From a virus, in UHGV virus genome UHGV-1781188: a stretch of DNA of 20,865 nt; one strand, 5' to 3'. Every line of letters starts with the position of its first letter. Position 1 is the first letter of the stretch. Below, piece by piece: positions 651 through 13,646 of this stretch. The notes under the pieces are model-generated. The model saw nothing but the letters and a program-made list of their open reading frames with translations, ran no database searches and was not told the DNA's origin. The position numbers and the translations under genes are program-made.

Positions 651-679
651 TTGACAAGGATCGGCAGTTTTGCTATATT
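651..679 (+). promoter_or_regulatory. sigma70-type promoter
   Basis: TTGACA (651-656), 17-bp spacer, TATATT (674-679), about 50 nt upstream of CDS 729. Confidence 0.55.
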
Positions 680-728
680 CTTTTTTGAAGGGAAGTTGTA
701 AGAAAATTAACTAAGAGGTAAAAACACC

Positions 729-1148
729 ATGAACATTAAATCTAATAATCCGGCATATAGCTTTGATAACGCTTTTTGTCACGGTCCGGCGGCGAAAGGA
801 TTCGAAATCGATGGTAAACTAATTATTGTCAATGTTGACGGGGAAGAGGTTGCAGTATATCCGGTGGCAGACGTTAAAAGCCGTTTGCAATGCCGCATGG
901 ATGTTACCGCCTACCAGCTTGATCCGGTCCGCATAGTTGCCCTGGTCCTGGAGGAAGAGATCAAAGCCATGCATCATAGCAACAAGTTTATCGGTGACGC
1001 GCAAGATAATATGAAGGTATGCCGCTATAAAGTTAATGAAGTGCTTAAAGAATATGGCTTCAAAGATCTGATGATCAAGCGTGATGAAAAATTCCGTTAT
1101 CGTAACGACCTGGCAAATCGAATCTATGAAATATACGAATCATTATAA
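729..1148 (+). CDS. hypothetical protein (139 aa)
   Basis: ATG at 729 with SD taagaggt upstream; intact ORF followed by terminator. Confidence 0.65.
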   Translation: MNIKSNNPAYSFDNAFCHGPAAKGFEIDGKLIIVNVDGEEVAVYPVADVKSRLQCRMDVTAYQLDPVRIVALVLEEEIKAMHHSNKFIGDAQDNMKVCRYKVNEVLKEYGFKDLMIKRDEKFRYRNDLANRIYEIYESL

Positions 1149-1166
1149 TTTCTTAACTAAACTATC

Positions 1167-1199
1167 AGGGGCTTTAAAAGGCCCCTTTCTTTTTGTCTG
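1167..1199 (+). terminator. rho-independent terminator
   Basis: GGGGCTTTT / AAAAGGCCCC near-perfect hairpin followed by tttctttttgtc. Confidence 0.6.
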
Positions 1200-1802
1200 T
1201 ATTTCTCCTACCACAAACGGCCCAGCCTGGCAAGTGGAATAATTGACTAGCCATCAATCCAACACACTGTACAAACATACATGTAAAATAACTATTGCAT
1301 AATTTTTCATTGTGTGGTAGCAGGTCCATTTTTACCCGCTTTTCCTTCCAAAACTGCATGCAATTCCGCTATTGCACAAAATTTAACCTGATGCACAATA
1401 TCTCTTTCTTGTCAACAACTAAAAATCTTTATAAGTCATACACTTACATAACTACAAAAGCGTGTTCTACGTGAAAAATCGAGTATAACTATAGCCGCCA
1501 GATCTCAGAATTTACGTACGCTCACCATTCTATAGCCAGCTAAGTATTTATTCCGACCATAGAATAACGGAATAGTCAATATCTGCATAAAATAATTATT
1601 CGTGTAAACTGCATAACATAAATCAGCTCAGGTGTCAACATTTTTCGTAAACAGTCCGAAATTATCACGATGAGTTATCATAAACAGAGAAATCTTTAGT
1701 CGTCTAATGTTTACTGTACATTACTATACTGACTGGAATCATTAGATGACTAAGAGAAAGATAAGAAATAATTAATAGTGTAATTATTTTACCTGTAACA
1801 AT

Positions 1803-1980
1803 AAGGCAACTATGCAAACGAATGGCATGGCGCGACGGAGTCGCGACATAATATAAAAGCAGTAACCATCACCCCCGTGATAGTTTGTCTGCAATCTATT
1901 AATCAGATCATAGTTGCCTTGTATTTAGTTAATCATGACATAACAAGCAAGGCAACTATAGATCTTCTAATAGTTGCCCT
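1803..1980. repeat. 11-bp iteron AAGGCAACTAT, four copies in alternating orientation
   Basis: direct at 1803-1813 and 1949-1959; reverse-complement ATAGTTGCCTT at 1910-1920 and ATAGTTGCCCT at 1970-1980 (1 mismatch). Confidence 0.6.
1812..1831. repeat. 20-bp direct repeat, copy 1 (ATGCAAACGAATGGCATGGC)
   Basis: identical 20-mer recurs at 2073-2092. Confidence 0.7.
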
Positions 1981-1996
1981 GCTTTTATATTATGTC
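1845..1996. repeat. 18-bp perfect inverted repeat pair flanking the iteron cluster
   Basis: GACATAATATAAAAGCAG at 1845-1862 and its exact reverse complement CTGCTTTTATATTATGTC at 1979-1996. Confidence 0.7.
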
Positions 1997-2013
1997 ATAG
2001 AAACACCCGAAGG

Positions 2014-2030
2014 GGTGACCAAAGGTCACC
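2014..2030. repeat. perfect palindrome GGTGACC-AAA-GGTCACC
   Basis: 7-bp arms, 3-bp spacer; flanked by cccgaagggg. Confidence 0.6.
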
Positions 2031-2072
2031 TGGCATAGCCAGCGAAAGATTATTAACTTGCTAATCGTTATC

Positions 2073-2092
2073 ATGCAAACGAATGGCATGGC
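2073..2092. repeat. 20-bp direct repeat, copy 2 (ATGCAAACGAATGGCATGGC)
   Basis: identical to 1812-1831; followed by TTATAAT. Confidence 0.7.
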
Positions 2093-2183
2093 TTATAATT
2101 TTTGAGCAAATAGTCTATACGTGAACAGTGAGGCATGCAATAGTAACAATTGTTATTGTATCCAGTGTGTTGAGTATGCCCAG

Positions 2184-2221
2184 TGTGTCACTATTATGTC
2201 ATATTATGTCACAGTATGTCA
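2184..2221. repeat. four helically phased short repeats (TGTGTCA, then TATGTCA x3 at 10-bp period)
   Basis: TGTGTCA 2184-2190; TATGTCA at 2195, 2205, 2215; TGACATA (reverse) also at 1936-1942 and TATGTCA at 1991-1997. Confidence 0.6.
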
Positions 2222-3536
2222 GACAAGTTTTCCTCCTCTTTGTCAAGTGCTGCATGAAAAATTTACAAACTGGTATGGTAGCATTTTTGCGGCCCTGTTT
2301 ACATTCAGTAATGTATGTATAATCCTTGTTGTGTGGGCGTTTAGACGTCTAGACGGTCAGAAGTCCGCAGGTCAATAACTAATCTATCGGCTGCTAACTA
2401 TATCCCACACAAATAGTAAGAAATATAATTGTTATGTGTGTAAACAGTAACTCATGTTATCAATCCCTGTATGGATCGCCAGTGGTGCGCATAATGGGTA
2501 TTATGTTAAATTGCCCGTAATGATAACAGTTCTCACAATGATAGGTATTCTCATTCACCCCCACAAGATAGGTTGCAAATGTTGTGCCACTGTGTGAACG
2601 GCCTCACCTATTAATTTGCCTCACTGCCTCGATATTTGAGAATTGTTATAAGAATGAGAAGTATTCCCATTTCGTCCGCCTGGCAGCACTCCAGTCGCTA
2701 CCGGCTCCTGACAGGGAGGCACTCCTGTCGGTCAGGTCAAAATCATGGTATAACTGGACCTGTTCAGATATTTCTGGCTGGCTCTTCAGGTCTGTGTGGG
2801 AAAAGCCAACCTCTCAGGCGGGGCAGGGGGGTCATGACGGGAAAATTGCAGGTCAATTAAAAAATTTACGTGGTGTATGAAGCGCTCTTCAGGTAAGGCA
2901 TGTATTATGGGATGAAACCCTCTTCAGGCAATGATATTTGTGGGTGTGATATTTGCTGGAAAGCCAGATATGACGGGACTCCCGGCTGGGCAGGGGTAGT
3001 ACAGACAGGGGAAATATGGAGGATGTAGTTGGGTGAGTTGATCAGACAGGTTGGGTATAGATATGTTACAAGTATGTTAAATATGGAGGGTGAATATCTG
3101 TAGGATTTATGTGTAAAATCAAAGACTTAAGTGGTGTTGTGGTATTTTCTATAAATAATTCAAGTTTAATAGGTAATATTTGTCTCTGTCCGCTTTGTGT
3201 GGTAAGCAAATTCAGATGGTGTTGGTTTACAAGTGTATACATAATATACAAATTAAAGATACAAGAAACCCCCCTCCCCCTTCGGCTACCATTCACCTTT
3301 TCCTCTGACTGGTACTTAAACACTTATTCAGACTCTTCAGGTTATCACCCATATATCATATGGCAGTGACTGGTGTCCTCCGGCCCCTCTTTCGTCACCC
3401 GTCCGCTTCGCCATGCTAATGCCATAGCCAATGGTTCGGTTGTTCACCCTGTTCACTCAGGTGTATCTCCATACCCCTTCAAACCGAAGAGAACAGAAAA
3501 CCCGAATTACTCGGTAAAAGAAAAGAGAAGAACTTA

Positions 3537-3564
3537 ATTTTATCAGGATAGGCAAGAATGTCAA
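3537..3564 (-). promoter_or_regulatory. sigma70-like promoter directed into the non-coding region
   Basis: minus strand TTGACA (3564-3559), 16-bp spacer, TAAAAT (3542-3537); no convincing CDS downstream. Confidence 0.4.
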
Positions 3565-3691
3565 GGCATGACTGCTCACTAAACAAGCAAACAGTCATGT
3601 GTGGGAGGTAAGTGATTGTGGTGGTAGGAAATTTAGTTGAAAGATGTGTTATAGGTGCTTCCAGCACTTTAGCCGGGCAGCTAATTGTGTG

Positions 3692-3907
3692 TCAGTCCAG
3701 CGGTTCATCCTCTACTTCACTGAAATCAATGTTCATGGTCTCTTCCCAACCATCGATCTCAGCACAAGAGTGGAGTTCTTTAGGGTTTACTCCCAAAGCC
3801 TCAGCAACAGAGTCTATATTTAACACCTCTGGCAGGTATGATTCATCGAATTCAAGGTAAATCAGGCCACGAGTGTTGTCAGCTCCACCAAATATCTCTA
3901 TCTTCAT
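3692..3907 (-). CDS. small acidic protein (71 aa), MKIEI-type N-terminus
   Basis: ATG with SD agaggaga upstream; acidic C-terminus; N-terminus resembles other MK(I/V)(E/K)I genes in the block. Confidence 0.6.
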   Translation of the reverse strand: MKIEIFGGADNTRGLIYLEFDESYLPEVLNIDSVAEALGVNPKELHSCAEIDGWEETMNIDFSEVEDEPLD

Positions 3908-4026
3908 AAAATCTCCTCTGGGAATGAGAGTGTGAACAGGATTATACGTCCAAATGCGCAGGAATTATGCACGTTTGCCTCTTCAGGCCATGCTTTAGCA
4001 TGAGGAACCTGTGTGGGCTCGGTGCT

Positions 4027-4239
4027 TCATAGTCTACCACCTCTGAACTCTTCGTGCTCAGGCATAATAGAGAACCAGATATCTACGATGTCCTCCCACG
4101 TCAGGTCATCAGCCTCAGGATCTGTCTGGGACGAAGATGAAGAGTCCTCAGAATCTAAGTTTTCCTCTTTAACTGGCTCATCCAAGGGACATATGGTCAC
4201 TCCTTCGGATGTCTCTTCAGATGCATGTGTGTTGATCAT
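4027..4239 (-). CDS. highly acidic Ser/Asp/Glu-rich protein (70 aa)
   Basis: internal ATG of track ORF 4027-4440; ATGA overlap with the upstream small peptide; about 20 D/E versus 3 K/R. Confidence 0.5.
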   Translation of the reverse strand: MINTHASEETSEGVTICPLDEPVKEENLDSEDSSSSSQTDPEADDLTWEDIVDIWFSIMPEHEEFRGGRL

Positions 4240-4337
4240 GTTCCACCTGTGAGTATTCCGGCAACAGCCGCTATGGACGTAATGATCATCAGGATCACCA
4301 CTAAAACTTCGGACAATGTTCTCATAGTGTATTCCAT
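4236..4337 (-). CDS. small hydrophobic peptide (33 aa, one predicted TM helix)
   Basis: MEYTMRTLSEVLVVILMIITSIAAVAGILTGGT; SD ggaga 5 nt upstream; promoter 4358-4386 just upstream; stop overlaps the next start (ATGA). Confidence 0.45.
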   Translation of the reverse strand: MEYTMRTLSEVLVVILMIITSIAAVAGILTGGT

Positions 4338-4357
4338 ATTCTCCAAATGATGTGTGG

Positions 4358-4386
4358 ATATTATCACTGGAGCTGTAATGTGTCAA
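4358..4386 (-). promoter_or_regulatory. sigma70-type promoter
   Basis: minus strand TTGACA (4386-4381), 17-bp spacer, TAATAT (4363-4358). Confidence 0.55.
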
Positions 4387-4555
4387 TAGAAACGCCGCGA
4401 GGGTTTGGTTAAAATCCGAGCGTATGGTGATTTGGGTCAAAACGGACGTGCGTTCTCGCTACGCTCGAAATATGGAGTTGTTTGTAGGAAGCTCTTAAAC
4501 GCTCTGTAACGAGATTATCTGTCCAAGGTATGCAATCGTGCACCAGACAAAGAAA

Positions 4556-4575
4556 AGGACGCCACAGAGCGTCCT
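4556..4575 (-). terminator. rho-independent terminator
   Basis: aggacgc / gcgtcct stem, 6-nt loop; on the minus strand followed by ttttctttg; directly after CDS 4600-4899. Confidence 0.6.
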
Positions 4576-4599
4576 AGGTGTCTTAAATTTGATATTTTG

Positions 4600-4899
4600 C
4601 TATACCCATGAGGGCTTATCAAGGTTGGAGTAGCTAAAAGGTGTCAAAAGGTGACTGTCAAAATCTCTCAAACTATCCAAATCTTTTTCCTCGTCCTGAC
4701 ACCATCTGTGCCTACATTTATTGTTGTAGTGCATAGAATGCATAGCGTTCTGCAACTTAACAGGCACAAGTGATTCAGGAGTAGTTAGTATTGTTGGGTA
4801 TGCCAGAACCACCTCAAACAGTGGAAACACATCGAAACTAAAGTCTACCTCTGCAGAGGTTGATGGCATGTAGGAGTATTTAGCCGCCTTTGTAGACAT
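4600..4899 (-). CDS. hypothetical protein (99 aa)
   Basis: start moved to MSTKAAKY (SD gaggtgg upstream), which overlaps the stop of the upstream gene. Confidence 0.55.
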   Translation of the reverse strand: MSTKAAKYSYMPSTSAEVDFSFDVFPLFEVVLAYPTILTTPESLVPVKLQNAMHSMHYNNKCRHRWCQDEEKDLDSLRDFDSHLLTPFSYSNLDKPSWV

Positions 4900-4907
4900 A
4901 ATCCACC

Positions 4908-5240
4908 TCACACAGGTTTGATAATACCTTTACCGAATAACTCTTCGTATCTAATCTTGTCCGGATCCCACTCCTGGATAATTTCGAAGACAATATCCAA
5001 CCCGGGAACAATCACTTCTCCAGTGTCAAGCTTAGCAAGAACAAAACCGGAAGGTTGAATGGTTTCCCAGTTACGGCGATCAGAATAAAATACTTCGAAA
5101 ATATCGCCAACCTCAATCCGTTTCTGTTGCTCAAGATGCTCAAGGTTCTCTTTCATACGGATGCAGCGTATTTTTCGTGCAGGCCATAGACCACCTGCAT
5201 CACGTTCATTCAATTCTTTTACAGTGATCGGTATACCCAT
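4908..5240 (-). CDS. hypothetical protein (110 aa)
   Basis: start moved to MGIPITVKE (SD ggaggaga 6 nt upstream); the track start lies inside the terminator hairpin. Confidence 0.6.
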   Translation of the reverse strand: MGIPITVKELNERDAGGLWPARKIRCIRMKENLEHLEQQKRIEVGDIFEVFYSDRRNWETIQPSGFVLAKLDTGEVIVPGLDIVFEIIQEWDPDKIRYEELFGKGIIKPV

Positions 5241-5265
5241 CTCAAATCTCCTCCATAGATAGTAA

Positions 5266-5291
5266 AAAGAGGGGCCCAAGCCCCCCTCTTT
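5266..5291 (-). terminator. rho-independent terminator (possibly bidirectional)
   Basis: aaagaggggc / gcccccctcttt hairpin; on the minus strand followed by TTTTT; directly after CDS 5296-5601. Confidence 0.6.
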
Positions 5292-5295
5292 GTCA

Positions 5296-5601
5296 TTATT
5301 CTACAGAGCGTTTGAACAGAATGTCTGCCTCGGACATGTGCTCAACCTCTTCTTCGATTTTAGCTCGACGTTTTTCAGCCTCATAGCGAATATCAAACTC
5401 GGTAGCAACCAGAGATTTGATGAATTTAGGAGAATACAGGTGATCCTGCTTCTCAACGAGAATGATATCCTTAATGGCATCTTTCAGATCTTTAATCTGA
5501 AGTTGGAGTTCCACCAGTTCTTCGATTGTTTTGCGAAGGCGATCACGCTCTGCAGTGTCAGAAGGAAGAGAGGTGAACAGTTCAACTTTAGATTTAGCCA
5601 T
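5296..5601 (-). CDS. hypothetical charged coiled-coil protein (101 aa)
   Basis: ATG with SD aaggaga upstream; heptad-like charged sequence. Confidence 0.7.
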   Translation of the reverse strand: MAKSKVELFTSLPSDTAERDRLRKTIEELVELQLQIKDLKDAIKDIILVEKQDHLYSPKFIKSLVATEFDIRYEAEKRRAKIEEEVEHMSEADILFKRSVE

Positions 5602-5629
5602 AGTAAGAGTCTCCTTATGTTGTTTTAAA

Positions 5630-5881
5630 TTAACGTTCTACAAAAATACCGTTCAGTTCAATAACCAGGAATTTCTGGTCTTCACTATCGTCACGAGCCA
5701 GCACCTCACAGACGTAACGGTCATCTCCGTCATCATCACAGTCAAATACAAGACTGAGGACTTTATCATGATAAACCTTCGCCACTACCGCCTCGTAAGT
5801 ATTGCCGATTGTGAATCCAAGATAATCTCCAATGCATTTGACAACAACATGATCACCAGCATTCAAGTCAATCTTCGTCAT
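5630..5881 (-). CDS. hypothetical protein (83 aa)
   Basis: start moved to MTKIDLNAG (SD aaggagcg upstream); contains a DDDGDD acidic patch. Confidence 0.65.
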   Translation of the reverse strand: MTKIDLNAGDHVVVKCIGDYLGFTIGNTYEAVVAKVYHDKVLSLVFDCDDDGDDRYVCEVLARDDSEDQKFLVIELNGIFVER

Positions 5882-5984
5882 TACTGCGCTCCTTGGGTAA
5901 TAATACTGTATGTAAAACTTTAACCAGAGATGTGAATAACGCCCCAAAACACACCGATAGCGCTAAAACAGACAAGGCCATCAT
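5868..5984 (-). CDS. small hydrophobic peptide (38 aa)
   Basis: MMALSVLALSVCFGALFTSLVKVLHTVLLPKERSNDED; its stop overlaps the start region of the next gene; weak SD. Confidence 0.35.
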   Translation of the reverse strand: MMALSVLALSVCFGALFTSLVKVLHTVLLPKERSNDED

Positions 5985-6036
5985 TAAAGCTTCAGTAAAA
6001 TCAGTCACCCCTCACCTCTTGTTAGTCACTATACTG

Positions 6037-6300
6037 TCATTTATCCTTGCCGTCAAGAACTTTTTTAAATCTTTCAGGGATATCGCCTGTTCTTAGATAG
6101 CTCATGACCTCACAAGGTTCCCACTTAAATTTCTTACAAAGCAGGGCGGCTGAGATTGTTTCATTGCGAAAAGAAAGGATATTAATATCCCATTCTGAGA
6201 ACCCCAACTTCCGAAGGGTAGCTACAGAAATCCTCACCGCAACCCAGCAGCAAAAACATGCAACAAACGCCACTGCTATAACCCACATCAGGATGTTCAT
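6037..6300 (-). CDS. membrane protein (87 aa), N-terminal TM helix
   Basis: MNILMWVIAVAFVACFCCWVAV hydrophobic N-terminus; SD gaggtg upstream. Confidence 0.6.
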   Translation of the reverse strand: MNILMWVIAVAFVACFCCWVAVRISVATLRKLGFSEWDINILSFRNETISAALLCKKFKWEPCEVMSYLRTGDIPERFKKVLDGKDK

Positions 6301-6309
6301 ACAAGCACC

Positions 6310-6393
6310 TCACTGAAATACAAGACACAGTGTTAAGGTTACTGACCAGCAAATAATTAACAGTGCCGTTGCAACCTTGGCAAGATTTATCAT
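6310..6393 (-). CDS. small hydrophobic peptide (27 aa)
   Basis: MINLAKVATALLIICWSVTLTLCLVFQ; ATGA overlap with the stop of CDS 6390-6677; SD agaggc upstream. Confidence 0.4.
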   Translation of the reverse strand: MINLAKVATALLIICWSVTLTLCLVFQ

Positions 6394-6677
6394 AGTGCCT
6401 CTAAGATTTCATATCCTTCGGGTCGGAATACAAGCCACTCCGTGGCTCCGTTTGGTCGATACGCTTTATACAGAACAACCTGATCTCGGCACATGCACAT
6501 AGCTACATAGTTTTCATCCACACCTGCAGCCTGCATTGCAGCTTCTTCTCCGGCAACTGCTTTGCTTACAACCTCCTTGGTAGGCAGGTGTGCGATCAGC
6601 TCGTCACCATCATTAATTCCAAAATGACTGAGTTCTCCATTGGTATCTTTAATCTTAATCTTAACCAGATCTTTCAT
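6390..6677 (-). CDS. hypothetical protein (95 aa)
   Basis: TAATG overlap with the upstream gene. Confidence 0.7.
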   Translation of the reverse strand: MKDLVKIKIKDTNGELSHFGINDGDELIAHLPTKEVVSKAVAGEEAAMQAAGVDENYVAMCMCRDQVVLYKAYRPNGATEWLVFRPEGYEILEAL

Positions 6678-7006
6678 TAGTCTTCCTCCAGGTTCAAAGG
6701 CCCTAAGATTTCATATGCCAGATTAGAAGTTACCAGAGGGTCTTCTGCATCTTTAGTATTGTACCACCCGTGAATAACCAGAGTCCCACTTTGTTTCATG
6801 TCCAACTGGAACTCTTCTGCCGTTTCCTCATCCAGCTCCAAGATTTCCATGAGGTATTTGATGTTAGGAAGGTATGCAGCTGTTACAGTTCCCTCCACCA
6901 AACCTTCGGGCCAACCTACATCCGGATGACAAGTAGGAACCAAGTTGGTCAACTTAATGGTGTACGCTTTTTCTGCACGAGCCTTCAGTAACGGGTCAAT
7001 CTTCAT
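6677..7006 (-). CDS. hypothetical acidic protein (109 aa)
   Basis: TAATG overlap with the upstream gene; acidic C-terminus. Confidence 0.7.
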   Translation of the reverse strand: MKIDPLLKARAEKAYTIKLTNLVPTCHPDVGWPEGLVEGTVTAAYLPNIKYLMEILELDEETAEEFQLDMKQSGTLVIHGWYNTKDAEDPLVTSNLAYEILGPLNLEED

Positions 7007-7356
7007 TATTCGTCCTCCTCTTCGGTGCCTGCTTCCAGTAATAAGTTAAGAATATCTTCTGCACAAGGCTCATAGAACTCTTGGCCTTCATTATCGATGA
7101 TTTTGTAGTCATCTCCACGAATAATCAGTGGATCACTCTCAAAATTATCGAGACCTTTAACAACGACAACACGATCGATTGCCATCATTGTAAGAACTTT
7201 ATCGACATCTTCCTCTGCTACACCATACTGCAGCAGAATGTCTTTGGTAGGAGGAACAGCATCCACCACAACGCCGTTACCAAAACCTTCTGGAAGTTTA
7301 GCTAAAATATCTTCCGGAACCACATTCACATCAAAACCGGTAATTTCTACTTTCAT
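7006..7356 (-). CDS. small acidic protein (116 aa), related to family B
   Basis: MKVEITG N-terminus; shares a hydrophobic V-V-V-K-G core with 7357-7614 and 8781-9050; poly-acidic tail EAGTEEEDE. Confidence 0.7.
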   Translation of the reverse strand: MKVEITGFDVNVVPEDILAKLPEGFGNGVVVDAVPPTKDILLQYGVAEEDVDKVLTMMAIDRVVVVKGLDNFESDPLIIRGDDYKIIDNEGQEFYEPCAEDILNLLLEAGTEEEDE

Positions 7357-7614
7357 TTACAGCACCTCTTCGTCAACTACTTCATAAAAATGGCCTGGGA
7401 TTGCAATAGCGTTCTCACCTTCACCTACAAACACAGTTCCGTCAAGAATCAACATCATAAGAATGTCTGGAATATCCTCTTCCGGAACGTTGCCAAAACT
7501 TTTAATCAGTTTGTAGGTTGGAAGATTTACCTCTAAGATGTCACCATCTTTAGAACGGAAATCTACACCGTCCTGAATCTCTGCCGTTTCAAGGTTTTTC
7601 AATTTAATCTTCAT
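7357..7614 (-). CDS. small acidic protein (85 aa), paralog family B
   Basis: start at ATG 7614 (SD aggaga 7 nt upstream; track start 7617 is TTG); aligns with 8781-9050 at both termini. Confidence 0.7.
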   Translation of the reverse strand: MKIKLKNLETAEIQDGVDFRSKDGDILEVNLPTYKLIKSFGNVPEEDIPDILMMLILDGTVFVGEGENAIAIPGHFYEVVDEEVL

Positions 7615-7646
7615 CAATCAGTCTCCTGTCTTGTTAAGATGAAGGT

Positions 7647-7675
7647 ATTATTTCACACAGGGTTGGTGTTGTCAA
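7647..7675 (-). promoter_or_regulatory. sigma70-like promoter (weak -10)
   Basis: minus strand TTGACA (7675-7670), about 17-bp spacer, AATAAT. Confidence 0.35.
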
Positions 7676-7693
7676 CACCTGTGTGCAAGAAAA

Positions 7694-8089
7694 TTACTGA
7701 AACAGTGCGGATAAATTACCTTCTGGTGGGAACTTATCTGCCAAAAACGGTGTTAGCACAGTAGCCTTCTGAAGATCTGGGGTCCACTCGTTGTTCAGAA
7801 CATCCCAGTAGTACGCAATGTTACTGTGTGGGTGCCGCATTACGAACTTTTTCCATTCGTAGTCATCTGAAACCTCTACAGAAGAAATAACAACAGAATC
7901 TTCAAGGGTTTCTTCATAGAAAGATCCGCCTTCAAATTTCCAACGAGATGCAAGAGCCCCTGCCTTGAACGCTGCAGATAACGGACTGTCGGCAAGAACA
8001 TACATTTCTTGCACTCTGTCGCTGCGATCTTTGCTTCTTACGTTGTACACAGTATCTGAGCTATACTCAACACGGTATAGGCTTACCAT
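7694..8089 (-). CDS. hypothetical protein (131 aa), paralog family C
   Basis: SD gaggaggt upstream; shares an HP(D/H)S..YW...W.TP..L.. segment with 9896-10294. Confidence 0.7.
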   Translation of the reverse strand: MVSLYRVEYSSDTVYNVRSKDRSDRVQEMYVLADSPLSAAFKAGALASRWKFEGGSFYEETLEDSVVISSVEVSDDYEWKKFVMRHPHSNIAYYWDVLNNEWTPDLQKATVLTPFLADKFPPEGNLSALFQ

Positions 8090-8421
8090 TACCGCACCTC
8101 CTCAATAACTTCCACATCTGAACCCACCACAAATGCAAAAGGACAGGTTTCATGAAAGACATCCGGATCGCCGCCAAGCTTGCTAACAATTTCTCCACCA
8201 CTAATAAACACAAGCTCACCGATATTCATCAGATTGCTGAAATAGTATCCATAATGATTAAAGAATGCAGCAGGGTCAGGTAGACTAGTAGCCTCAAGTT
8301 CTACATCGGTTGAGATTACTTTCTTATCATAACCTCTCGCCTTCTGAGATGCAAGATCTGCAGAATCTTCAGGCGACCGGAGATGCACAGGAATTGTTTC
8401 ACCAATAAAGCGTACTTTCAT
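8089..8421 (-). CDS. small protein (110 aa), paralog family A
   Basis: start moved to MKVRFIG (SD ggtga upstream); shares LVF(I/V).G...L..G and VGSD.E.(I/V)EE with other family A members. Confidence 0.65.
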   Translation of the reverse strand: MKVRFIGETIPVHLRSPEDSADLASQKARGYDKKVISTDVELEATSLPDPAAFFNHYGYYFSNLMNIGELVFISGGEIVSKLGGDPDVFHETCPFAFVVGSDVEVIEEVR

Positions 8422-8425
8422 ATTA

Positions 8426-8689
8426 TCACCCAACAACCATAGCTTCAAAAGGGGTCATGAACGAATAAACGGCATCATCATCTGCTTCAGGGAATGCTCC
8501 CAAAGACTTCATGTCTGAGCCTTTGACAAATACAAGGTTTTGATCAAAAGCTTCTTGGGGGTCAATCCGATACATATTTCGTAGAATATCGCCTACCTCC
8601 TCATCAAGAGGTGAGTATGCTGTGCACGTTTTTCCGATCAAGCTTTGAGAATCAGGGTATCCACCTGAAGTTTTAAAATAAACAATCAT
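8426..8689 (-). CDS. small protein (87 aa), paralog family A
   Basis: GYPDSQSLIGK and LVFVKGSDMKSLGA match the family A core. Confidence 0.65.
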   Translation of the reverse strand: MIVYFKTSGGYPDSQSLIGKTCTAYSPLDEEVGDILRNMYRIDPQEAFDQNLVFVKGSDMKSLGAFPEADDDAVYSFMTPFEAMVVG

Positions 8690-8744
8690 ATAGTATCACC
8701 TATGGTAAGAGATTGGGATTCCTTTCCCACAAATAATTACAAAC

Positions 8745-8761
8745 CTTCCTTGTCGAGGAAG
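8745..8761 (-). terminator. short hairpin followed by a U-rich tract (weak terminator candidate)
   Basis: cttcct / aggaag 6-bp stem; on the minus strand followed by gtttgtaattatttg; downstream of CDS 8781-9050. Confidence 0.3.
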
Positions 8762-8780
8762 TATGCTAATCCAAGCAGGA

Positions 8781-9050
8781 TTATTCCTCTACAATCTCAT
8801 ACACATCCGGAGTTACAATCAACTCTTCTCCGTTACCTGGTGCAACAAACACCACCATTCCTTCAGGTGTGTGCTTTTTAGCCATCTCGATAACATCTTC
8901 TCGCAGAGCTGGCTCCATCAGATCAAAACCTTCACCCAGGGCATCACGAACCACCTTCATATAGTCAACTGGTTGTGCTTCGACAATCATGCCTTCAACC
9001 AGTCCACAGTTTTTGTCTGCCAGCTCAGTTTTGAATAATTTAATTTTCAT
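8781..9050 (-). CDS. small acidic protein (89 aa), paralog family B
   Basis: MKIKLFKTEL N-terminus and ...YEIVEE C-terminus parallel 7357-7614; SD gaggaga upstream. Confidence 0.7.
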   Translation of the reverse strand: MKIKLFKTELADKNCGLVEGMIVEAQPVDYMKVVRDALGEGFDLMEPALREDVIEMAKKHTPEGMVVFVAPGNGEELIVTPDVYEIVEE

Positions 9051-9076
9051 TTAGAGGTCTCCTCAATTATTTGATA

Positions 9077-9178
9077 TTAATAGCCGTAACCTAACACATT
9101 AACTACAACTGCGATTGCAAACATAATTTCAAAGCATGCAATCTCTACATTTGGGACTAGTTTCTTAATCACGCCCAT
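9077..9178 (-). CDS. small hydrophobic peptide (33 aa)
   Basis: MGVIKKLVPNVEIACFEIMFAIAVVVNVLGYGY; SD gaggtg upstream, overlapping the stop of the HPF-like gene. Confidence 0.4.
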   Translation of the reverse strand: MGVIKKLVPNVEIACFEIMFAIAVVVNVLGYGY

Positions 9179-9187
9179 TGTAGCACC

Positions 9188-9505
9188 TCATTCTCCAAAG
9201 TCAATCTTTACTTTGCCTTTCCCCTTACCTTTCTTTCCACCGCATTTAGCCAGCTGACGTGCTGCAACATCTACCATACGGTCAGTTGCCTCGTAAGCAT
9301 CACCACCTTTAGCCTTGGCAATAACTTCTTTTCCAGAATTGTCAAAAATGAGCGCCATAACTTCCTGGTGATCATTTTCAACTTTTACACTCACACGTGC
9401 ATAGTTGGCAGAGGGGTGCAAACGCTCCAGCTTAGACATTTTGTGGGAAATGAAAGACACCATACCTTCAGTGATTTCTACGTTGCCAGTGATTTCAATT
9501 TGCAT
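9188..9505 (-). CDS. hpf: ribosome hibernation promoting factor-like protein (HPF/RaiA/YfiA family) with Gly/Lys-rich tail
   Basis: N-terminus MQIEITGNVEITEGM and the segment KAKGGDAYEATDRMVDVAARQLAK match hallmark HPF/RaiA motifs as I remember the E. coli proteins (N-terminal ITG..(M/V)EIT and C-terminal D.Y.AI..L...L.RQL); SD aaagga upstream. Confidence 0.8.
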   Translation of the reverse strand: MQIEITGNVEITEGMVSFISHKMSKLERLHPSANYARVSVKVENDHQEVMALIFDNSGKEVIAKAKGGDAYEATDRMVDVAARQLAKCGGKKGKGKGKVKIDFGE

Positions 9506-9523
9506 AACGTGTTCCTTTTAAAG

Positions 9524-9544
9524 AAGAGGGAACCAAACCCTCTT
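9524..9544 (-). promoter_or_regulatory. hairpin in the leader of the HPF-like gene
   Basis: aagaggg / ccctctt 7-bp stem with a 7-nt loop, between promoter 9553-9581 and the hpf RBS. Confidence 0.35.
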
Positions 9545-9552
9545 TGAAAACA

Positions 9553-9581
9553 ATGATACTAAATCTGAAGCGTTGTGTCAA
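9553..9581 (-). promoter_or_regulatory. sigma70-type promoter upstream of the HPF-like gene
   Basis: minus strand TTGACA (9581-9576), 17-bp spacer, TATCAT (9558-9553). Confidence 0.5.
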
Positions 9582-9587
9582 CAGTTT

Positions 9588-9878
9588 TTACAGCTTGTTG
9601 TCGATAGTTTTTAAAATATCCACAGCAAGATCTGCCATTTTTCGAACATACTCTGCAAACTCAACAGGATCCTTGATCAAAGAATTCACAGGGTCGTACC
9701 CTAGAGCGTTTAAAATGGCTGCAGCATCTACAACCTTCTCATCATTTGCGAAGATCTCTCCGTCAAACTTGTAGGTCCATTTTGAGTCAACCTTAGCAGA
9801 GCAGGGTTTGTCCATGCTTGTTACACCATCGTCTTTAAACTCTCCTGCGTTATCAATATTTAGAATTAAATCCATCAT
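9588..9878 (-). CDS. hypothetical protein (96 aa)
   Basis: ATG-ATG start with SD gaggtg upstream. Confidence 0.65.
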   Translation of the reverse strand: MMDLILNIDNAGEFKDDGVTSMDKPCSAKVDSKWTYKFDGEIFANDEKVVDAAAILNALGYDPVNSLIKDPVEFAEYVRKMADLAVDILKTIDNKL

Positions 9879-9895
9879 GGTGACACCTCACTGTT

Positions 9896-10294
9896 TCAGT
9901 TTAGCTTTTCTTCAACAACCCCATAACTTGGGGCAGAGTCAAGAGCTTTCTGGTTTAAAAGTGGCGTAGCAGAATCTGCAAACGGTGTCCAAGTTTTTGT
10001 TCTGGCATTCCAGTAATGCTTCACTCTGGAATCTGGATGCACTATAACAAAAACTTTTTCACTTGTCAACACATTAATTTCTTCTACACCCTTGCTGATA
10101 ATTTCTCCGTCATAGCCCCCAGTCTGGTATCCTTCGTACCAGGTTCTTGCATAGGCATAGCCAGCCTGCCAGCATGCAGCCTCCTCCGAGGTGGAGACTA
10201 CGTAGAAGTCTTTCTCAAATTCTGGAATACGCCCTTGCTTTACGCTCCAAGCCCCGCGAATTTTCATTGTAACTTTAAACAGTTTATTTTTCAC
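9896..10294 (-). CDS. hypothetical protein (132 aa), paralog family C
   Basis: HPDSRVKHYWNARTKTWTPFADSATPLL aligns with 7694-8089; the track start is GTG and the true start is uncertain. Confidence 0.6.
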   Translation of the reverse strand: MKNKLFKVTMKIRGAWSVKQGRIPEFEKDFYVVSTSEEAACWQAGYAYARTWYEGYQTGGYDGEIISKGVEEINVLTSEKVFVIVHPDSRVKHYWNARTKTWTPFADSATPLLNQKALDSAPSYGVVEEKLN

Positions 10295-10306
10295 AACGGT
10301 TACCCA

Positions 10307-10561
10307 TCACAGCTCTACAATATCTGCATCTGACCCTACCCCAAAGGCATAATAGGACTCTTCCCCGAAATAGTATTCAGGTGCACCAGCGGTGATCAGG
10401 TCTGATCCCAAGATAAACACCACGTTGTGGCCTACATAGCTGTGATGTTGCCGCACAGGATCATCCCACGGCAACCCTTCAAAGTATACCGCAGGAACGA
10501 CCTTTCCCTTCAGGAAGGATTGTCCCAAGTAGATGTTAGAATCAAGAATTTTAACCTTCAT
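10307..10561 (-). CDS. small protein (84 aa), paralog family A
   Basis: MKVKILDSNIYLGQ...GSDLITAGAPE... closely parallels its neighbour 10551-10775; SD ggagga upstream. Confidence 0.7.
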   Translation of the reverse strand: MKVKILDSNIYLGQSFLKGKVVPAVYFEGLPWDDPVRQHHSYVGHNVVFILGSDLITAGAPEYYFGEESYYAFGVGSDADIVEL

Positions 10562-10775
10562 GATCGTCCTCCACTACCTCTACATCCTCGCCTAGGGCAA
10601 AGTTGTAGGTCCACTGACTGTCAAAGCAGTCCTGAGATGCACCAGCGGCAATAAGATCTGCCCCTTTTATTTTTAAAAGGTCAGGGTAATCTTCGTTAGG
10701 GACAGCAGTAAACACTTTTCCTACTAAAGGCTCCTGACCAATATAGAAGCTTGAATCTAAAACTTTAACTTTCAT
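10551..10775 (-). CDS. small acidic protein (74 aa), paralog family A
   Basis: start at ATG 10775 (ATGA overlap with upstream stop; track start 10778 is TTG); MKVKVLDSSFYIGQ...GADLIAAGASQ. Confidence 0.7.
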   Translation of the reverse strand: MKVKVLDSSFYIGQEPLVGKVFTAVPNEDYPDLLKIKGADLIAAGASQDCFDSQWTYNFALGEDVEVVEDDHEG

Positions 10776-11062
10776 CAACGGTCTCCATCAGGTGGTTGTG
10801 GGACGTAAACACTGTTACGAATATCGTCCGCAGTATAGTAATAAGTGTCTCCAACCCTATCTCTGGCTGCAATGTACTCTGCTATGCCAATAAGTGCCAT
10901 TGATTTGGTGGCGTATCTTCCCAACTCGTTAGCTCCCCAGTAGAATTTAGACCAATAGGGAATAAGACCGAACAAATATACCTTTTGACGAACTTCCCAG
11001 TAAGTGCCTTTCCCGACAAGTTTAAACTCGACTTCACCACTGTTAATCTTTTTCATTATCAA
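10775..11062 (-). CDS. hypothetical protein (95 aa)
   Basis: ATGA overlap with the upstream gene; Trp/Tyr-rich. Confidence 0.65.
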   Translation of the reverse strand: MIMKKINSGEVEFKLVGKGTYWEVRQKVYLFGLIPYWSKFYWGANELGRYATKSMALIGIAEYIAARDRVGDTYYYTADDIRNSVYVPQPPDGDR

Positions 11063-11355
11063 TCTCCCTCCACCGTGGTCGGATTGTCAGTAAGAAATTG
11101 AGCATTAGCTGGAGGCACACCTGACATTTTCCACACAACCATAAGTTTGTAACCAGGCACTCTATTAAGTGCAGATCGAGTAGAGTTTGTGCACGTATAT
11201 TTTCGCTTTCCAAACCCGTTCTCAAGCATGATCCAGTATCCCGTGTCTTTATCACCTGGAATTGGTAATCCCTCATCGTCCACCCATTGAATGGACCATG
11301 GCACGATGGCTACAGCTTTATATTTAAACTTTTTAAACCACTCAAAAAGTTTCAT
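11059..11355 (-). CDS. hypothetical protein (98 aa)
   Basis: SD gagg upstream; intact ORF. Confidence 0.65.
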   Translation of the reverse strand: MKLFEWFKKFKYKAVAIVPWSIQWVDDEGLPIPGDKDTGYWIMLENGFGKRKYTCTNSTRSALNRVPGYKLMVVWKMSGVPPANAQFLTDNPTTVEGD

Positions 11356-11358
11356 AAT

Positions 11359-11448
11359 TCAGCCTCGCATAGACATAATCACTATAAACAGGCAAACAAT
11401 GAATCCGAATGCCACGCCACCCATAAACGTTAATATTGATGCAATCAT
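11359..11448 (-). CDS. small hydrophobic peptide (29 aa)
   Basis: MIASILTFMGGVAFGFIVCLFIVIMSMRG; fills the gap between two genes; SD gagg inside the upstream gene end. Confidence 0.3.
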   Translation of the reverse strand: MIASILTFMGGVAFGFIVCLFIVIMSMRG

Positions 11449-11450
11449 AG

Positions 11451-11636
11451 TCAATCAGCCTCGCTTGGCAACTCTTCCACCTTAACATGCCGAAAAGTGT
11501 TACCGTAATGGTTGATCCATGACATCAGCTCACTTTCTTGCTCTTCCTCTGGGATGAACTCTCGAATACTGACAAGTTTTAAGAAAACCCAATCACAATC
11601 TGCACCCATTCTACCAGACAGACAATAGTGCTTCAT
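11451..11636 (-). CDS. hypothetical protein (61 aa)
   Basis: SD ggaggg 5 nt upstream of ATG. Confidence 0.55.
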   Translation of the reverse strand: MKHYCLSGRMGADCDWVFLKLVSIREFIPEEEQESELMSWINHYGNTFRHVKVEELPSEAD

Positions 11637-11655
11637 AAAAACCCTCCATCCTGGT

Positions 11656-11856
11656 TTAGAATACTGCCTCTTTTAATGATCCAAGGAGCAGCAGGTGTGA
11701 AATCTGATCCACATCCATGGTAGATTCAATCTCCTCTTTTTTGAAAGGTTCTCGGCAAAACAGTACTACATTTGGGTTTTCGCTACGCACTATATAATAC
11801 AGATCGTTCAAATCATTCTCATAGTAGGTATTAAATTTAAGAATTTTGTCACTCAT
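11656..11856 (-). CDS. hypothetical protein (66 aa)
   Basis: ATGA overlap with the upstream gene. Confidence 0.6.
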   Translation of the reverse strand: MSDKILKFNTYYENDLNDLYYIVRSENPNVVLFCREPFKKEEIESTMDVDQISHLLLLGSLKEAVF

Positions 11857-12140
11857 TTTCTAATCCTCTTCTTAGATTTTTGTGCAGAAACGCTTTCTGC
11901 AATACGAGACAGGCGTTCTTCTGAAGCTTTACCTACCCCAGGTTTCTTGAGCGGGTTATCTTTATGACCGCAATCCAATTGGATGCTAGATACCTCCCCA
12001 ACCTTGTAAGTCAATTCTAACAAAAGGTTGTCGTCCTTGTCAAATGTTTTTACGATAAATTTTTTATCGTTCTCCTGAACTTCATATCTGGTACCTGCAG
12101 TATACAGCATGGTGCCATCAGCATAGGATATCCAGATCAT
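11853..12140 (-). CDS. hypothetical protein (95 aa), basic C-terminus
   Basis: ATGA overlap with the upstream gene; C-terminal KSKKRIRK. Confidence 0.6.
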   Translation of the reverse strand: MIWISYADGTMLYTAGTRYEVQENDKKFIVKTFDKDDNLLLELTYKVGEVSSIQLDCGHKDNPLKKPGVGKASEERLSRIAESVSAQKSKKRIRK

Positions 12141-12484
12141 TGAGCCTCCTTTTGCTGCAACAGCATTAACTCTTTGTTAGAGATCTTTACTGCTGTTTTT
12201 ATTGTTCCATCTTCACGAAACCACGACCAGAACTCTACAGTGTCACCACTATCAAGTAAAGCATGCCCATGGTAAAAATCTTTGTCCTTAGACAGTTTCT
12301 CATCTATATCTGCATCAACACATTCGTGATCCATAGCATTTTGCCTGAACGCATCGGTTATGCCAATGCACGCCTTGCTCTCAAGACTGGTATATCCGAT
12401 ATCTTTTAATTCAGTTTCCCAAGTCCAGTACCCTATAAAAGCTAAAACAGCTACCCACAGTAATAACGTTTTAATCTTTGGCAT
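12137..12484 (-). CDS. secreted or membrane-anchored protein (115 aa)
   Basis: N-terminal MPKIKTLLLWVAVLAFIGYW hydrophobic segment (signal peptide or TM anchor); SD agaggtagagag upstream. Confidence 0.65.
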   Translation of the reverse strand: MPKIKTLLLWVAVLAFIGYWTWETELKDIGYTSLESKACIGITDAFRQNAMDHECVDADIDEKLSKDKDFYHGHALLDSGDTVEFWSWFREDGTIKTAVKISNKELMLLQQKEAQ

Positions 12485-12514
12485 TCTCTCTACCTCTTTC
12501 TTAGTTTATTTCAC

Positions 12515-12563
12515 TATGGCACATCCTTTGTGCCATATCTCAACTACTACTTAAATAGTAGTT
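12515..12563 (-). promoter_or_regulatory. two adjacent perfect hairpins / palindromes in the intergenic spacer
   Basis: TATGGCACA-tcctt-TGTGCCATA (12515-12537; 9-bp arms) and AACTACTA-cttaaa-TAGTAGTT (12542-12563; 8-bp arms, overlaps the stop of CDS 12547-13017). Confidence 0.5.
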
Positions 12564-13017
12564 CAAAATAGTGCAAAATTAACAGAAGTTGAACTACACC
12601 TAGTGCAACGGCGAGTATGTTAATCTTAGAATCGAAAAACTTCTTAACTTTTACTCTAAAAGGTTCCTTAATGTCCTTTACGATCCTATCTATAGATGAC
12701 CTCATATCTCTGATTACCATCCTGAACATTAAAGACGGATGCTCCCCCATCTCTGTAACGGAATCGAAAACATACTCTCTTCGGTCATAAGGGCCGCCAG
12801 CTCTGCGTATTAACCTCTCCACAGAGACCTCGAACGTCACACCTGTAACGTAATCATCTATAACAAGTCGTGACGGGTCTTTACCTTTACTATCAAGAGG
12901 TATCAAAGTTATCTTTCCAGATTTTGTTAAAATTTCCCCTTTTTCAAGCAAGGTGTACCAATGCTCTCTGCCAAGACTGTTGAGGCACGTTTTTACATAT
13001 TTAACAAACATCGTCAC
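12547..13017 (-). CDS. tail-anchored membrane protein (156 aa)
   Basis: C-terminal INILAVALGVVQLLLILHYFELLF hydrophobic helix; ATGA overlap with the upstream gene. Confidence 0.65.
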   Translation of the reverse strand: MTMFVKYVKTCLNSLGREHWYTLLEKGEILTKSGKITLIPLDSKGKDPSRLVIDDYVTGVTFEVSVERLIRRAGGPYDRREYVFDSVTEMGEHPSLMFRMVIRDMRSSIDRIVKDIKEPFRVKVKKFFDSKINILAVALGVVQLLLILHYFELLFK

Positions 13018-13199
13018 CCCTCATCGCACGTCTGATATAACCACTCTATAAAATCTTGATACCATTCGCCCTCTGAGCGCTCCGTAGGCCAATAATCTTC
13101 ACCCTCTCGTGCATTAAAATCTGAGTATTCAACTTTCCACTCCTTTACCAGCTCGTGGAGAAGGTTTTCAGCCTGCTCTAAAGATTTATTTTTTACCAT
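13014..13199 (-). CDS. hypothetical acidic protein (61 aa)
   Basis: start moved to MVKNKSL (SD aaggaga 6 nt upstream). Confidence 0.55.
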   Translation of the reverse strand: MVKNKSLEQAENLLHELVKEWKVEYSDFNAREGEDYWPTERSEGEWYQDFIEWLYQTCDEG

Positions 13200-13293
13200 T
13201 GCTGTCTCCTTTTTCAAGATAGTTATACATCAGAACTGCACCACCTAAGATGGCTACCAGTAACAATATCCCAGATAGCATCTCAATAAACAT
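13186..13293 (-). CDS. possible small hydrophobic peptide (35 aa)
   Basis: MFIEMLSGILLLVAILGGAVLMYNYLEKGDSNGKK; no clear SD; overlaps both neighbours. Confidence 0.25.
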   Translation of the reverse strand: MFIEMLSGILLLVAILGGAVLMYNYLEKGDSNGKK

Positions 13294-13435
13294 GGCTTGA
13301 AACACTGGAAGGTCTCCCTAAATTAACGCACCATTTTAAATACATGCTCTTTTCCCATAAAGGTGCCTGGCTAAGATCTGCGTAGAACGCAATCTCTTTA
13401 AGAACAGTATAGATAGTTTTAGGTGCGGTCTCCAT
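13283..13435 (-). CDS. hypothetical protein (50 aa)
   Basis: internal start METAPKT with SD aaggagag upstream; overlaps the end of 13419-13646. Confidence 0.4.
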   Translation of the reverse strand: METAPKTIYTVLKEIAFYADLSQAPLWEKSMYLKWCVNLGRPSSVSSHVY

Positions 13436-13646
13436 CCCTACTCTCCTTCCTGATATTCTTGTAGTAATCAACTAGGCACATTATTACGATGAAGATAACA
13501 ACAGGCCAAAAAGGTGCAGCAGTGATGATGGTGATAAAATCATCAAACTTCACCCTTCGTCTGGACACGATGCATACACCTGTCAAGAATACCGCTGTTA
13601 TAACGGACATTACCAGGTAACCTATTAGCACAACATTTATACTCAT
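13419..13646 (-). CDS. small membrane protein (75 aa, two predicted TM helices)
   Basis: two long hydrophobic stretches; SD agggagg upstream. Confidence 0.6.
   Translation of the reverse strand: MSINVVLIGYLVMSVITAVFLTGVCIVSRRRVKFDDFITIITAAPFWPVVIFIVIMCLVDYYKNIRKESRDGDRT

Follow-up and report, generated by a model that had tools for sequence, protein, structure and literature searches.

Candidate single-helix membrane-peptide genes between the larger genes of an rV5-like coliphage, and a short cassette shared with temperate phages

Analysis of a 20,865-nucleotide (nt) stretch of viral DNA, UHGV virus genome UHGV-1781188 (the window, at its full length, in what follows), showed six very small open reading frames (ORFs), m1 to m6, wedged between larger genes. 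The explanation that best fits the evidence, and which we hold with moderate confidence, is that these are genuine genes for single-helix membrane peptides that act as accessory membrane modulators. On comparative grounds, five or more of the six are very probably true protein-coding genes for membrane peptides, and for m3 the same can be called probable. The comparisons support the view that both the reading frames and the hydrophobic character of the products have been maintained by selection. The window derives from an rV5-like coliphage of the genus Vequintavirus; its 4000-13500 stretch is 96-98% identical over the full length to FFH2 and rV5, and equally so to more than 100 further Vequintavirus records. 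The six ORFs are as follows.

m1, 4236-4337, minus strand: 33 amino acids (aa), MEYTMRTLSEVLVVILMIITSIAAVAGILTGGT, with the predicted transmembrane (TM) helix VLVVILMIITSIAAVAGIL
m2, 5868-6008, minus strand: 46 aa from a GTG at 6008 (the ATG at 5984 noted earlier is internal), with an acidic N-terminus, the predicted TM helix ALMMALSVLALSVCFGALF and a charged C-terminal tail
m3, 6310-6393, minus strand: 27 aa (84 nt), MINLAKVATALLIICWSVTLTLCLVFQ, with the predicted TM helix VATALLIICWSVTLTLCLV
m4, 9077-9178, minus strand: 33 aa, MGVIKKLVPNVEIACFEIMFAIAVVVNVLGYGY, with a basic N-terminus (KK), a hydrophobic core VEIACFEIMFAIAVVVNVL holding two conserved Glu residues, and a GYGY tail
m5, 11359-11448, minus strand: 29 aa, MIASILTFMGGVAFGFIVCLFIVIMSMRG, hydrophobic over nearly its whole length and ending in MRG
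m6, 13186-13305, minus strand: 39 aa from a GTG at 13305 (the ATG at 13293 noted earlier is internal), with the predicted TM helix IEMLSGILLLVAILGGAVL and a Lys-rich C-terminal tail

All six ORFs named in a preliminary description of this DNA were present on the minus strand, with the translations given there. Its coordinates stood as well, apart from the start codons of m2 and m6, which had been placed too far downstream. The lengths adopted here, 46 aa for m2 and 39 aa for m6, were chosen because ATG alternates with GTG at 6008 and 13305 and because each codon is served by a well-spaced Shine-Dalgarno motif. In an alignment of the window with 11 relatives from within the genus (88-97% identity), codon 6008, a GTG in the window, is ATG in six of the 11, and codon 13305, likewise a GTG, is ATG in seven. 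The rV5 annotation agrees with both lengths. For m1, an alternative start at Met5 (4325), giving 29 aa, may be used, as in the divergent comparison genome L026. This genome, at about 80% nt identity to the window, was reached via a protein search with m2; a third lineage, L028, was also compared.

The proposal that most of these ORFs are translated together with their neighbours agrees with the junctions. Most overlap or abut a neighbouring stop or start codon, and GGAG, GAGG or GGTG precedes all six. The m1 stop shares ATGA with the start of a downstream gene for an acidic 70-aa product (4027-4239), and m2 overlaps the start of the next gene by 14 nt. The ATG of m3 overlaps the upstream stop (ATGA), and its own stop lies 9 nt before the gene for an 87-aa membrane protein (6037-6300). 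m4 is separated from its neighbours by gaps of 9 nt and 26 nt, m5 begins 2 nt past the upstream stop and ends 3 nt before the next ATG, and m6 shares 23 nt with the ORF before it and 14 nt with the gene after it. Stop and start codons were thus found within a few nt of each other or overlapping, together with a Shine-Dalgarno motif, as translational coupling requires, and the coupled arrangement is retained in L026 and L028. Promoter-like sites were located at m1 and m2.

4358-4386, minus strand: sigma-70-like promoter, TTGACA-17-TAATAT plus TG, immediately upstream of m1
6028-6056, minus strand: promoter-like site near m2, from a consensus scan

L026 and L028 also carry a promoter element, TTGACA-17-TAGTAT, upstream of m1. 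A terminator-like hairpin (4556-4575) is situated upstream of the m1 promoter in the window.

The preliminary description had named beforehand what would count against the ORFs as genes, namely reading frames not conserved in relatives or a non-coding pattern at synonymous sites. On both points the outcome favoured coding. The frames are intact in the 11 relatives, with three exceptions: HMD-6 lacks the m5 cassette, m1 of ECP26 is truncated by a 70-nt insertion, and the m4 start is ATA in one unverified record. Variable columns at codon positions 1, 2 and 3 numbered 20, 16 and 52 for the pooled micro-ORFs (52/88 at the third position; binomial p = 6.6e-7), and the same count in 25 neighbouring genes gave 266, 162 and 882. 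Small indels were not seen within the micro-ORFs, whereas 11 true spacers had gaps in 5.3% of their columns; variable columns made up 13% of the micro-ORFs versus 22% of those spacers. Taken singly, m6 gave a strong third-position signal (17/22 variable sites, p = 3e-5), m1 and m2 a nominal one, m3 and m5 a marginal one, and m4 none within the genus. Within-genus ratios of nonsynonymous to synonymous differences (pN/pS) were 0.17 for m1, 0.29 for m2, 0.20 for m4, 0.30 for m5 and 0.06 for m6. m6 was present in 118 records, and m4 is the only open frame at its site in all 12 genomes. Comparison with L026 gave the following values.

m6: 95% aa identity, pN/pS 0.07
m4: 88% aa identity, pN/pS 0.19
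m2: 78% aa identity, pN/pS 0.30
m1: 67% aa identity, pN/pS 0.39
m3: 40% aa identity, pN/pS 0.59
neighbouring genes: 78-97% aa identity, pN/pS 0.03-0.23

Judged by substitution pattern, m3 is the weakest case. Its slot is held in L026 and L028 by 26-codon ORFs with a strong hydrophobic core (for L026, a mean Kyte-Doolittle value over 17 residues, KD17, of 2.64). These homologues start on the upstream stop and themselves stop just before the next Shine-Dalgarno motif, and between the L028 version and that of the window there is an in-frame indel of one codon. Change in m3 is lowest at second codon positions, and the ORF is intact in 118 Vequintavirus records.

Membrane character was called from a hydropathy scale, and topology from the charge distribution. 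As first described, each of the six products contains one hydrophobic helix, with mean Kyte-Doolittle values over 19 residues (KD19) of 2.27-2.95 in all six (2.95 for m1 and 2.39 for m3). Scored in this way, 10 of the window's 145 ORFs of 25-50 aa (six frames) reached 1.9, and six of these were m1-m6. The other four, about 3% of the remaining small ORFs, are antisense to genes or lie in a non-coding region. Among the larger genes of the array, 3/41 encode a comparable hydrophobic segment. We infer from this that the peptides insert in the host inner membrane. Acidic N-termini and basic C-termini suggest an N-out/C-in topology for m2, m5 and m6, and basic N-termini suggest that m3 and m4 are oriented N-in.

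The six genes had been described as unannotated, which proved correct for m3 (6310-6393) and incorrect for m1, m2, m4, m5 and m6, all of which are coding sequences (CDSs) in GenBank relatives. For these five the description holds solely relative to the 60-aa ORF track from which it was made. Their exact peptides are public as hypothetical proteins of rV5, FV3, JES2013, Murica and BASEL phages, and their 90%-identity clusters contain those deposited proteins. m1 has been deposited as bas48_0137, SYGMH1_95 and JES2013 ORF152; m2 is rV5 ORF156, m4 is rV5 ORF145 (a 'putative membrane protein' in I29), m5 has been deposited as bas48_0161, and m6 is rV5 ORF131. The corresponding hypothetical proteins of BASEL phage CarlMeissner are bas48_0137, 0143, 0153, 0161 and 0168. 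PHROG profiles were matched end to end by m1 (phrog_34195, E = 4e-21), m2 (phrog_16755, E = 4e-36), m4 (phrog_15151, E = 4e-26) and m6 (phrog_15251, E = 1e-30). There was no PHROG match for m3 and a weak partial one for m5 (E = 0.005), neither of which is a family member. All four families are listed as of unknown function, so that membership is uninformative on mechanism. Searches of the peptides against Pfam, NCBIfam and PADLOC returned no significant match. m3 appears in none of the ten annotation tables examined, and its 8 alleles are absent from a collection of 15 billion proteins. Five of the six ORFs, then, are already catalogued and m3 is new. New, too, is the natural history of these genes, comprising the m5 cassette, a decayed seventh ORF and chains of small ORFs in prophages.

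m5 is bracketed by a short direct repeat.

11455-11464, minus strand: upstream copy of the 10-nt direct repeat GCGAGGCTGA, containing a Shine-Dalgarno motif (GAGG) and a TGA stop
11359-11368, minus strand: downstream copy of GCGAGGCTGA, containing the last residues of m5 and its stop

The downstream copy provides the Shine-Dalgarno motif for the next gene (11059-11355). Murica, which is 96.6% identical overall, lacks m5, and its junction consists of exactly one repeat copy followed by ATTATG. HMD-6 and L026 are also without m5 and have empty junctions of another form, and about 91 of the roughly 120 records of the genus carry the gene. A module of 109-114 nt containing m5 was further detected, between unrelated flanks, in 8 IMG/VR contigs and in 10 of the 5,426 complete E. 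coli genomes searched. These matches have 77-97% nt identity and always 29 codons; one prophage allele differs from the window at 3 of 90 nt. Diverged alleles showed a pS of about 0.5 and a pN of about 0.14 (pN/pS 0.27-0.29), and near-identical alleles gave pN/pS values of 0.3-0.6 on 3-7 differences. A promoter-like 10/12 match overlaps the m5 start (11444-11471), where the Gotham record annotates a promoter; no terminator accompanies m5, which is coupled on both sides. Polymorphic presence, clean junctions and occurrence in unrelated genomes mark m5 as a mobile cassette. It appears to have been gained and lost by recombination at the 10-nt repeats, and to have been exchanged with temperate phages.

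The prophages carrying the module belong to the temperate mEp021 (mEpimmI) group (PMC11893012). In this group the m5 homologue comes after the gene for a 180-aa HExxH protein, downstream of the holin-endolysin-spanin (Rz) genes, and opens a chain of 8-10 ORFs, each 22-47 aa long, that runs to the small terminase gene. Every ORF in the chain starts with ATG, is preceded by a Shine-Dalgarno motif built around the stop codon before it, and encodes a single hydrophobic helix. Membership of the chain varies among mEp021-group phages, and some of its members resemble diverged duplicates. The six peptides of the window are not paralogous to one another, and m5 is the only one related to chain members. 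The small-ORF chain is not discussed in the paper on the mEpimmI group (PMC11893012). It was located as follows.

Chain loci in mEp021-group phages and prophages: L015 4470-5970; L016; L021 5357-6858; L022; L027 1502-3033

A broader reading, which we consider unlikely, is that single-helix genes make up an unrecognised class of fast-turnover accessory cassettes in coliphages, exchanged between Vequintavirus and the mEp021 group. The unit would be about 70-140 nt long and would hold the ribosome-binding site of the next gene in its own 3′ end. It would be inserted into, or deleted from, a coupled operon via repeated Shine-Dalgarno-plus-stop motifs, of which GCGAGGCTGA at m5 would be an example. 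The mEp021 chains would then be a diversifying battery, directed for instance against membrane-anchored defences or competing phages.

The alignment also contained the remains of a further gene of this kind.

8737-8778, minus strand: relic of a seventh micro-ORF, whose counterpart is intact in L026 (7154-7273)

The L026 counterpart is a 39-aa single-helix ORF, MLDLAYFLTVIGTPFVAAYGVWMVMERNTLKDFLVKKGL, and is also intact in a few other contigs of up to about 142 kb. In the window and the 11 relatives its ATG has become CTG and about 74 nt have been deleted, with lineages differing by indels of 1, 4 and 5 nt. Lying in the spacer 8690-8780, the relic serves as an internal example of a non-coding remnant within the same alignment. 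Together, the variable presence of m5, the disrupted m1 of ECP26 and the dead seventh ORF support the view that at least some of the micro-ORFs would be dispensable. In ECP26 (L007), m1 is disrupted at the equivalent of about 4250, where 58 nt have been inserted, with a 12-nt duplication, GTTGCCGGAATA, at the flanks. With its hairpin (ATCGACA / TGTCGAT) and the T-run behind it, the insert resembles a tiny mobile element or a terminator.

A working model for the peptides can be put forward by analogy. Ribosomes ending the upstream gene would reinitiate on the micro-ORF, or those ending the micro-ORF would reinitiate on the downstream gene. The products, of 27-46 residues and consisting of little beyond one TM helix, would insert in the host inner membrane, and there bind and tune a larger membrane protein of host or phage, as bacterial small membrane proteins do. 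That the peptides modulate a larger membrane partner is a tentative proposal, drawn from this likeness. Possible partners are the adjacent 87-aa membrane protein for m3 and, for m6, the two membrane proteins encoded downstream of it (12547-13002 and 12137-12484). Likely purposes would be host takeover, exclusion of other phages or the countering of membrane-based defence, and the micro-ORFs would be individually dispensable, with quick turnover. In Enterobacteriaceae, intergenic small ORFs (smORFs) under purifying selection are mostly hydrophobic and potentially transmembrane, and some microproteins are predicted to interact with the products of neighbouring genes (PMC11188072). A phage example is the product of T4 ac, whose assumed target is the AcrAB-TolC pump (PMC13250531).

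Several points weigh against the interpretation of m1-m6 as membrane-modulator genes. The proposed mode of action is drawn from analogy. No ribosome profiling or proteomics for these ORFs, and no translation or transcript data for the rV5 group, were found in the literature. Base composition can account for part of the hydrophobicity of small ORFs (PMC11188072). Within the genus, m4 shows no third-position excess (2/9 variable sites), and the pN/pS of m3, at about 0.6, is weakly below neutrality. The antisense frame of m1 is open in 12/12 within-genus genomes, with a pN/pS of 0.11 versus 0.17 for sense; that of m2, open in both the window and L026, has a within-genus pN/pS of 0.35 versus 0.29. 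For m5, every genome with the cassette keeps open the antisense frame (pN/pS 0.37 versus 0.30) and a second frame on the same strand. For m1, m2 and m5, then, an antisense frame with the same wobble position gives a similar or lower pN/pS, so that periodicity alone cannot set the strand. Finally, the comparisons all lie within the genus or its near relatives, and homologues of m1-m4 and m6 beyond that range were not found. A tblastn search with m3, m5 and m6 of 50,697 phage records returned only Vequintavirus, plus four weak chance matches for m5, and a protein search with m2 returned only relatives at 78% identity or more. The concatenated DNA of m1-m4 and m6 had no match in the 5,426 E. coli genomes, and a DNA search with 5600-13400 (m2-m6) found no phage outside the genus.

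The strand question bears directly on one alternative, in which the real genes are other frames: rV5 ORF162 across m1, or antisense ORFs (I29_147 on the plus strand; 5893-6096, plus strand, across m2). Frames of this kind are indeed annotated in rV5 and I29, and for m1 and m2 the antisense pN/pS values just given are as readily read in their favour. In L026, however, only the m1 frame is open at its site, the ORF162 frame and every antisense frame being interrupted by stops, and the length of the plus-strand ORF across m1 is not conserved, at 41 aa in the window and 94 aa in I29. Moreover, the neighbours are all minus-strand genes, and it is the minus-strand ORFs that come with Shine-Dalgarno motifs and with start codons that are conserved. 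The strand of m1 was therefore assigned from the stops in the other frames of L026, together with start codons, Shine-Dalgarno motif and gene orientation; that of m2 from GTG/ATG start switching, Shine-Dalgarno motif and uniform gene orientation; and that of m5 from the conservation of 29-codon alleles in unrelated prophage contexts. An assignment to other frames is, in our judgement, hardly credible. Both the ORF162 frame and the I29 antisense ORF were rejected as genes at the m1 site for want of conservation in L026, and a TTG start for m5 at 11454 was rejected because it is missing from the prophage alleles. The segment 4027-4440 is annotated discordantly, as one 101-aa ORF162 in rV5, as a plus-strand ORF in I29, and as a 70-aa gene plus m1 in CarlMeissner, JES2013 and Murica; the L026 comparison favours the last of these. 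It could also be supposed that the six are chance ORFs in non-coding spacers, their hydrophobicity a by-product of base composition. They are very short; few stops would be expected in any case, because divergence within the genus is low; m4 has no third-position excess and constraint on m3 is weak. Such an origin is nevertheless very unlikely given the pooled codon-position bias (p = 6.6e-7), the confinement of small indels to spacers, the start-codon switching at m2 and m6, pN/pS values well below 1 at about 20% divergence, and the conservation of m5 across unrelated genomes. A truly dead micro-ORF in the same alignment, moreover, looks quite unlike the six.

If the ORFs are translated, their peptides might still be functionless, the translation of each gap serving to retain ribosomes, feed the next start and prevent Rho-dependent polarity. 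The ORFs do occupy their gaps with hardly a nucleotide to spare; m3 and m5 provide, in their final codons, the Shine-Dalgarno motif for the gene that follows; m3 is fast-evolving (pN/pS about 0.6, 40% identity to L026); and clean removal of m5 leaves a coupled junction. Against this stand the amino acid constraint on m6, m4, m2 and m1 (pN/pS 0.07-0.39), the TM-like character of 6/6 versus about 3% of other small ORFs, and the retention of hydrophobic residues in m3, where second codon positions have changed least. The phage also tolerates the untranslated 90-nt spacer at 8690-8780, and further spacers of 60-90 nt exist. We therefore consider it quite unlikely that the ORFs are ribosome bridges only. 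An unlikely account, though one that does grant the peptides a function, makes them membrane-damaging toxins or lysis-timing factors, akin to a type I toxin or a holin/antiholin, that would depolarise or permeabilise the inner membrane, thereby shutting off the host or adjusting the time of lysis. In size and composition they are like single-helix toxins such as DinQ (PMC3567139), m1 and m2 have promoter-like sites of their own, and the holin-endolysin-spanin genes of mEp021-group phages are closely followed, downstream, by the m5 homologue with its chain. That chain, however, is separated from the lysis genes by the 180-aa gene, and in the window no endolysin or holin lies near the micro-ORFs. 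m3, m4 and m5 are operon-coupled and do not stand alone with long structured leaders, and PADLOC, Pfam and NCBIfam toxin models gave no match. At the Rfam gathering threshold the window yielded no RNA family, antitoxin or other, though a novel antisense RNA could escape such a scan.

The genomic setting is compatible with the reading of m1-m6 as accessory membrane-peptide genes. In relatives, all annotated genes from about 4000 to the right end of the window lie on the minus strand. The region contains many small hypothetical genes and a ribosome hibernation factor homologue, and further along it the CarlMeissner annotation lists a ClpP-like protease, a PhoH-like ATPase and NrdG/NrdD. Sigma-70 promoters have been annotated in the region by the rV5 annotators, and our consensus promoter scan returned nine sites matching at least 10/12 positions, 9/9 of them on the minus strand and some just upstream of m1 and m2. 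This picture is consistent with early or middle operons that would be driven by host RNA polymerase. An Rfam scan of the window found no family at the gathering threshold, and the window holds no tRNAs. Neither the rV5 nor the CarlMeissner annotation lists an endolysin or a holin in the matching regions.

Other features of the window were recorded in passing. Directly upstream of m4 is a gene for HPF/RaiA (Pfam Ribosomal_S30AE; 9188-9505); tblastn with this protein found 118 rV5-group phage records at 92-100% identity and otherwise one bacterial hpf and no other phage. Acidic neighbours of 74-95 aa with MK[VI]K... starts occur at 6390-6677, 7357-7614, 8781-9050, 10307-10561 and 10551-10775. 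They look like paralogues of one another, 10307-10561 and 10551-10775 being the clearest pair. The segment 1150-3690 (about 2.5 kb), between convergent gene blocks, has no CDS annotated in rV5 or CarlMeissner and is rich in stops in all six frames. Alignment of 297-4122 to L026 gave 82-89% identity, as high as in coding regions (79-86%). Within the 1150-3690 segment, 1845-1862 and 1979-1996 form a perfect inverted repeat of 18 nt, there are several repeats of the ATAGTTGCC type, and neither an Rfam family nor a tRNA was found; the segment could be an origin, another cis-acting region or an RNA-coding region. The last 27 nt of the window, 20839-20865, AGATCGGAAGAGCGTCGTGTAGGGAAAG, match what we take to be an Illumina TruSeq adapter, so that the window stops at a contig end with adapter read-through, within an nrdD-like ORF.

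These data illustrate how systematically small membrane proteins are under-called in phage genomes: of nine membrane-type proteins in the 17-kb early region, six are shorter than 50 aa. They also supply testable handles, in a peptide cassette of about 100 nt that moves between virulent phages and a temperate group, and in the chains found in that group. Natural pairs of phages with and without m5 exist, such as rV5 or FFH2 with the cassette and Murica or navn lacking it. Beyond these handles, the genes are ordinary conserved hypothetical small membrane proteins.

Comparison with catalogued families and known systems places the micro-ORFs as follows. With the PHROG families and GenBank hypothetical proteins, m1, m2, m4 and m6 share the full profile, whereas m3 has never been called and m5 is without a PHROG. 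Morons are accessory cassettes of temperate phages. m5 is like them in its presence/absence polymorphism and its occurrence in unrelated genomes at up to 97% nt identity, and in mEp021-group phages its homologue occupies an accessory slot between lysis and packaging genes. It is unlike them in its size of about 100 nt, the lack of a terminator, the bracketing by a Shine-Dalgarno-plus-stop repeat, and its presence in a virulent phage. TisB and Hok are type I toxin peptides. With these and with DinQ (PMC3567139), the micro-ORFs have in common a single hydrophobic helix in a product of about 27-50 residues. They differ in that no antisense RNA family was detected and in being mostly embedded in operons rather than independently and tightly repressed. 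Among virulent phages, T4 encodes the exclusion proteins Imm and Sp, which are small membrane proteins. Like these and Ac, the products of the micro-ORFs would be small proteins of the membrane, encoded outside the structural gene regions of a large virulent myovirus and probably dispensable for growth; they have no homology to the T4 proteins, however, and most T4 examples are larger. Bacterial inner-membrane regulators of 50 aa or fewer include AcrZ, MgrB, MgtS and CydX. The products of m1-m6 resemble such regulators, and the Enterobacteriaceae microproteins described above (PMC11188072), in size, in their single helix with short charged flanks, in purifying selection and in having as neighbours larger genes with whose products they may be in contact, but differ in that they share no sequence similarity with them, are encoded by a phage, lie in likely early operons and are translationally coupled.

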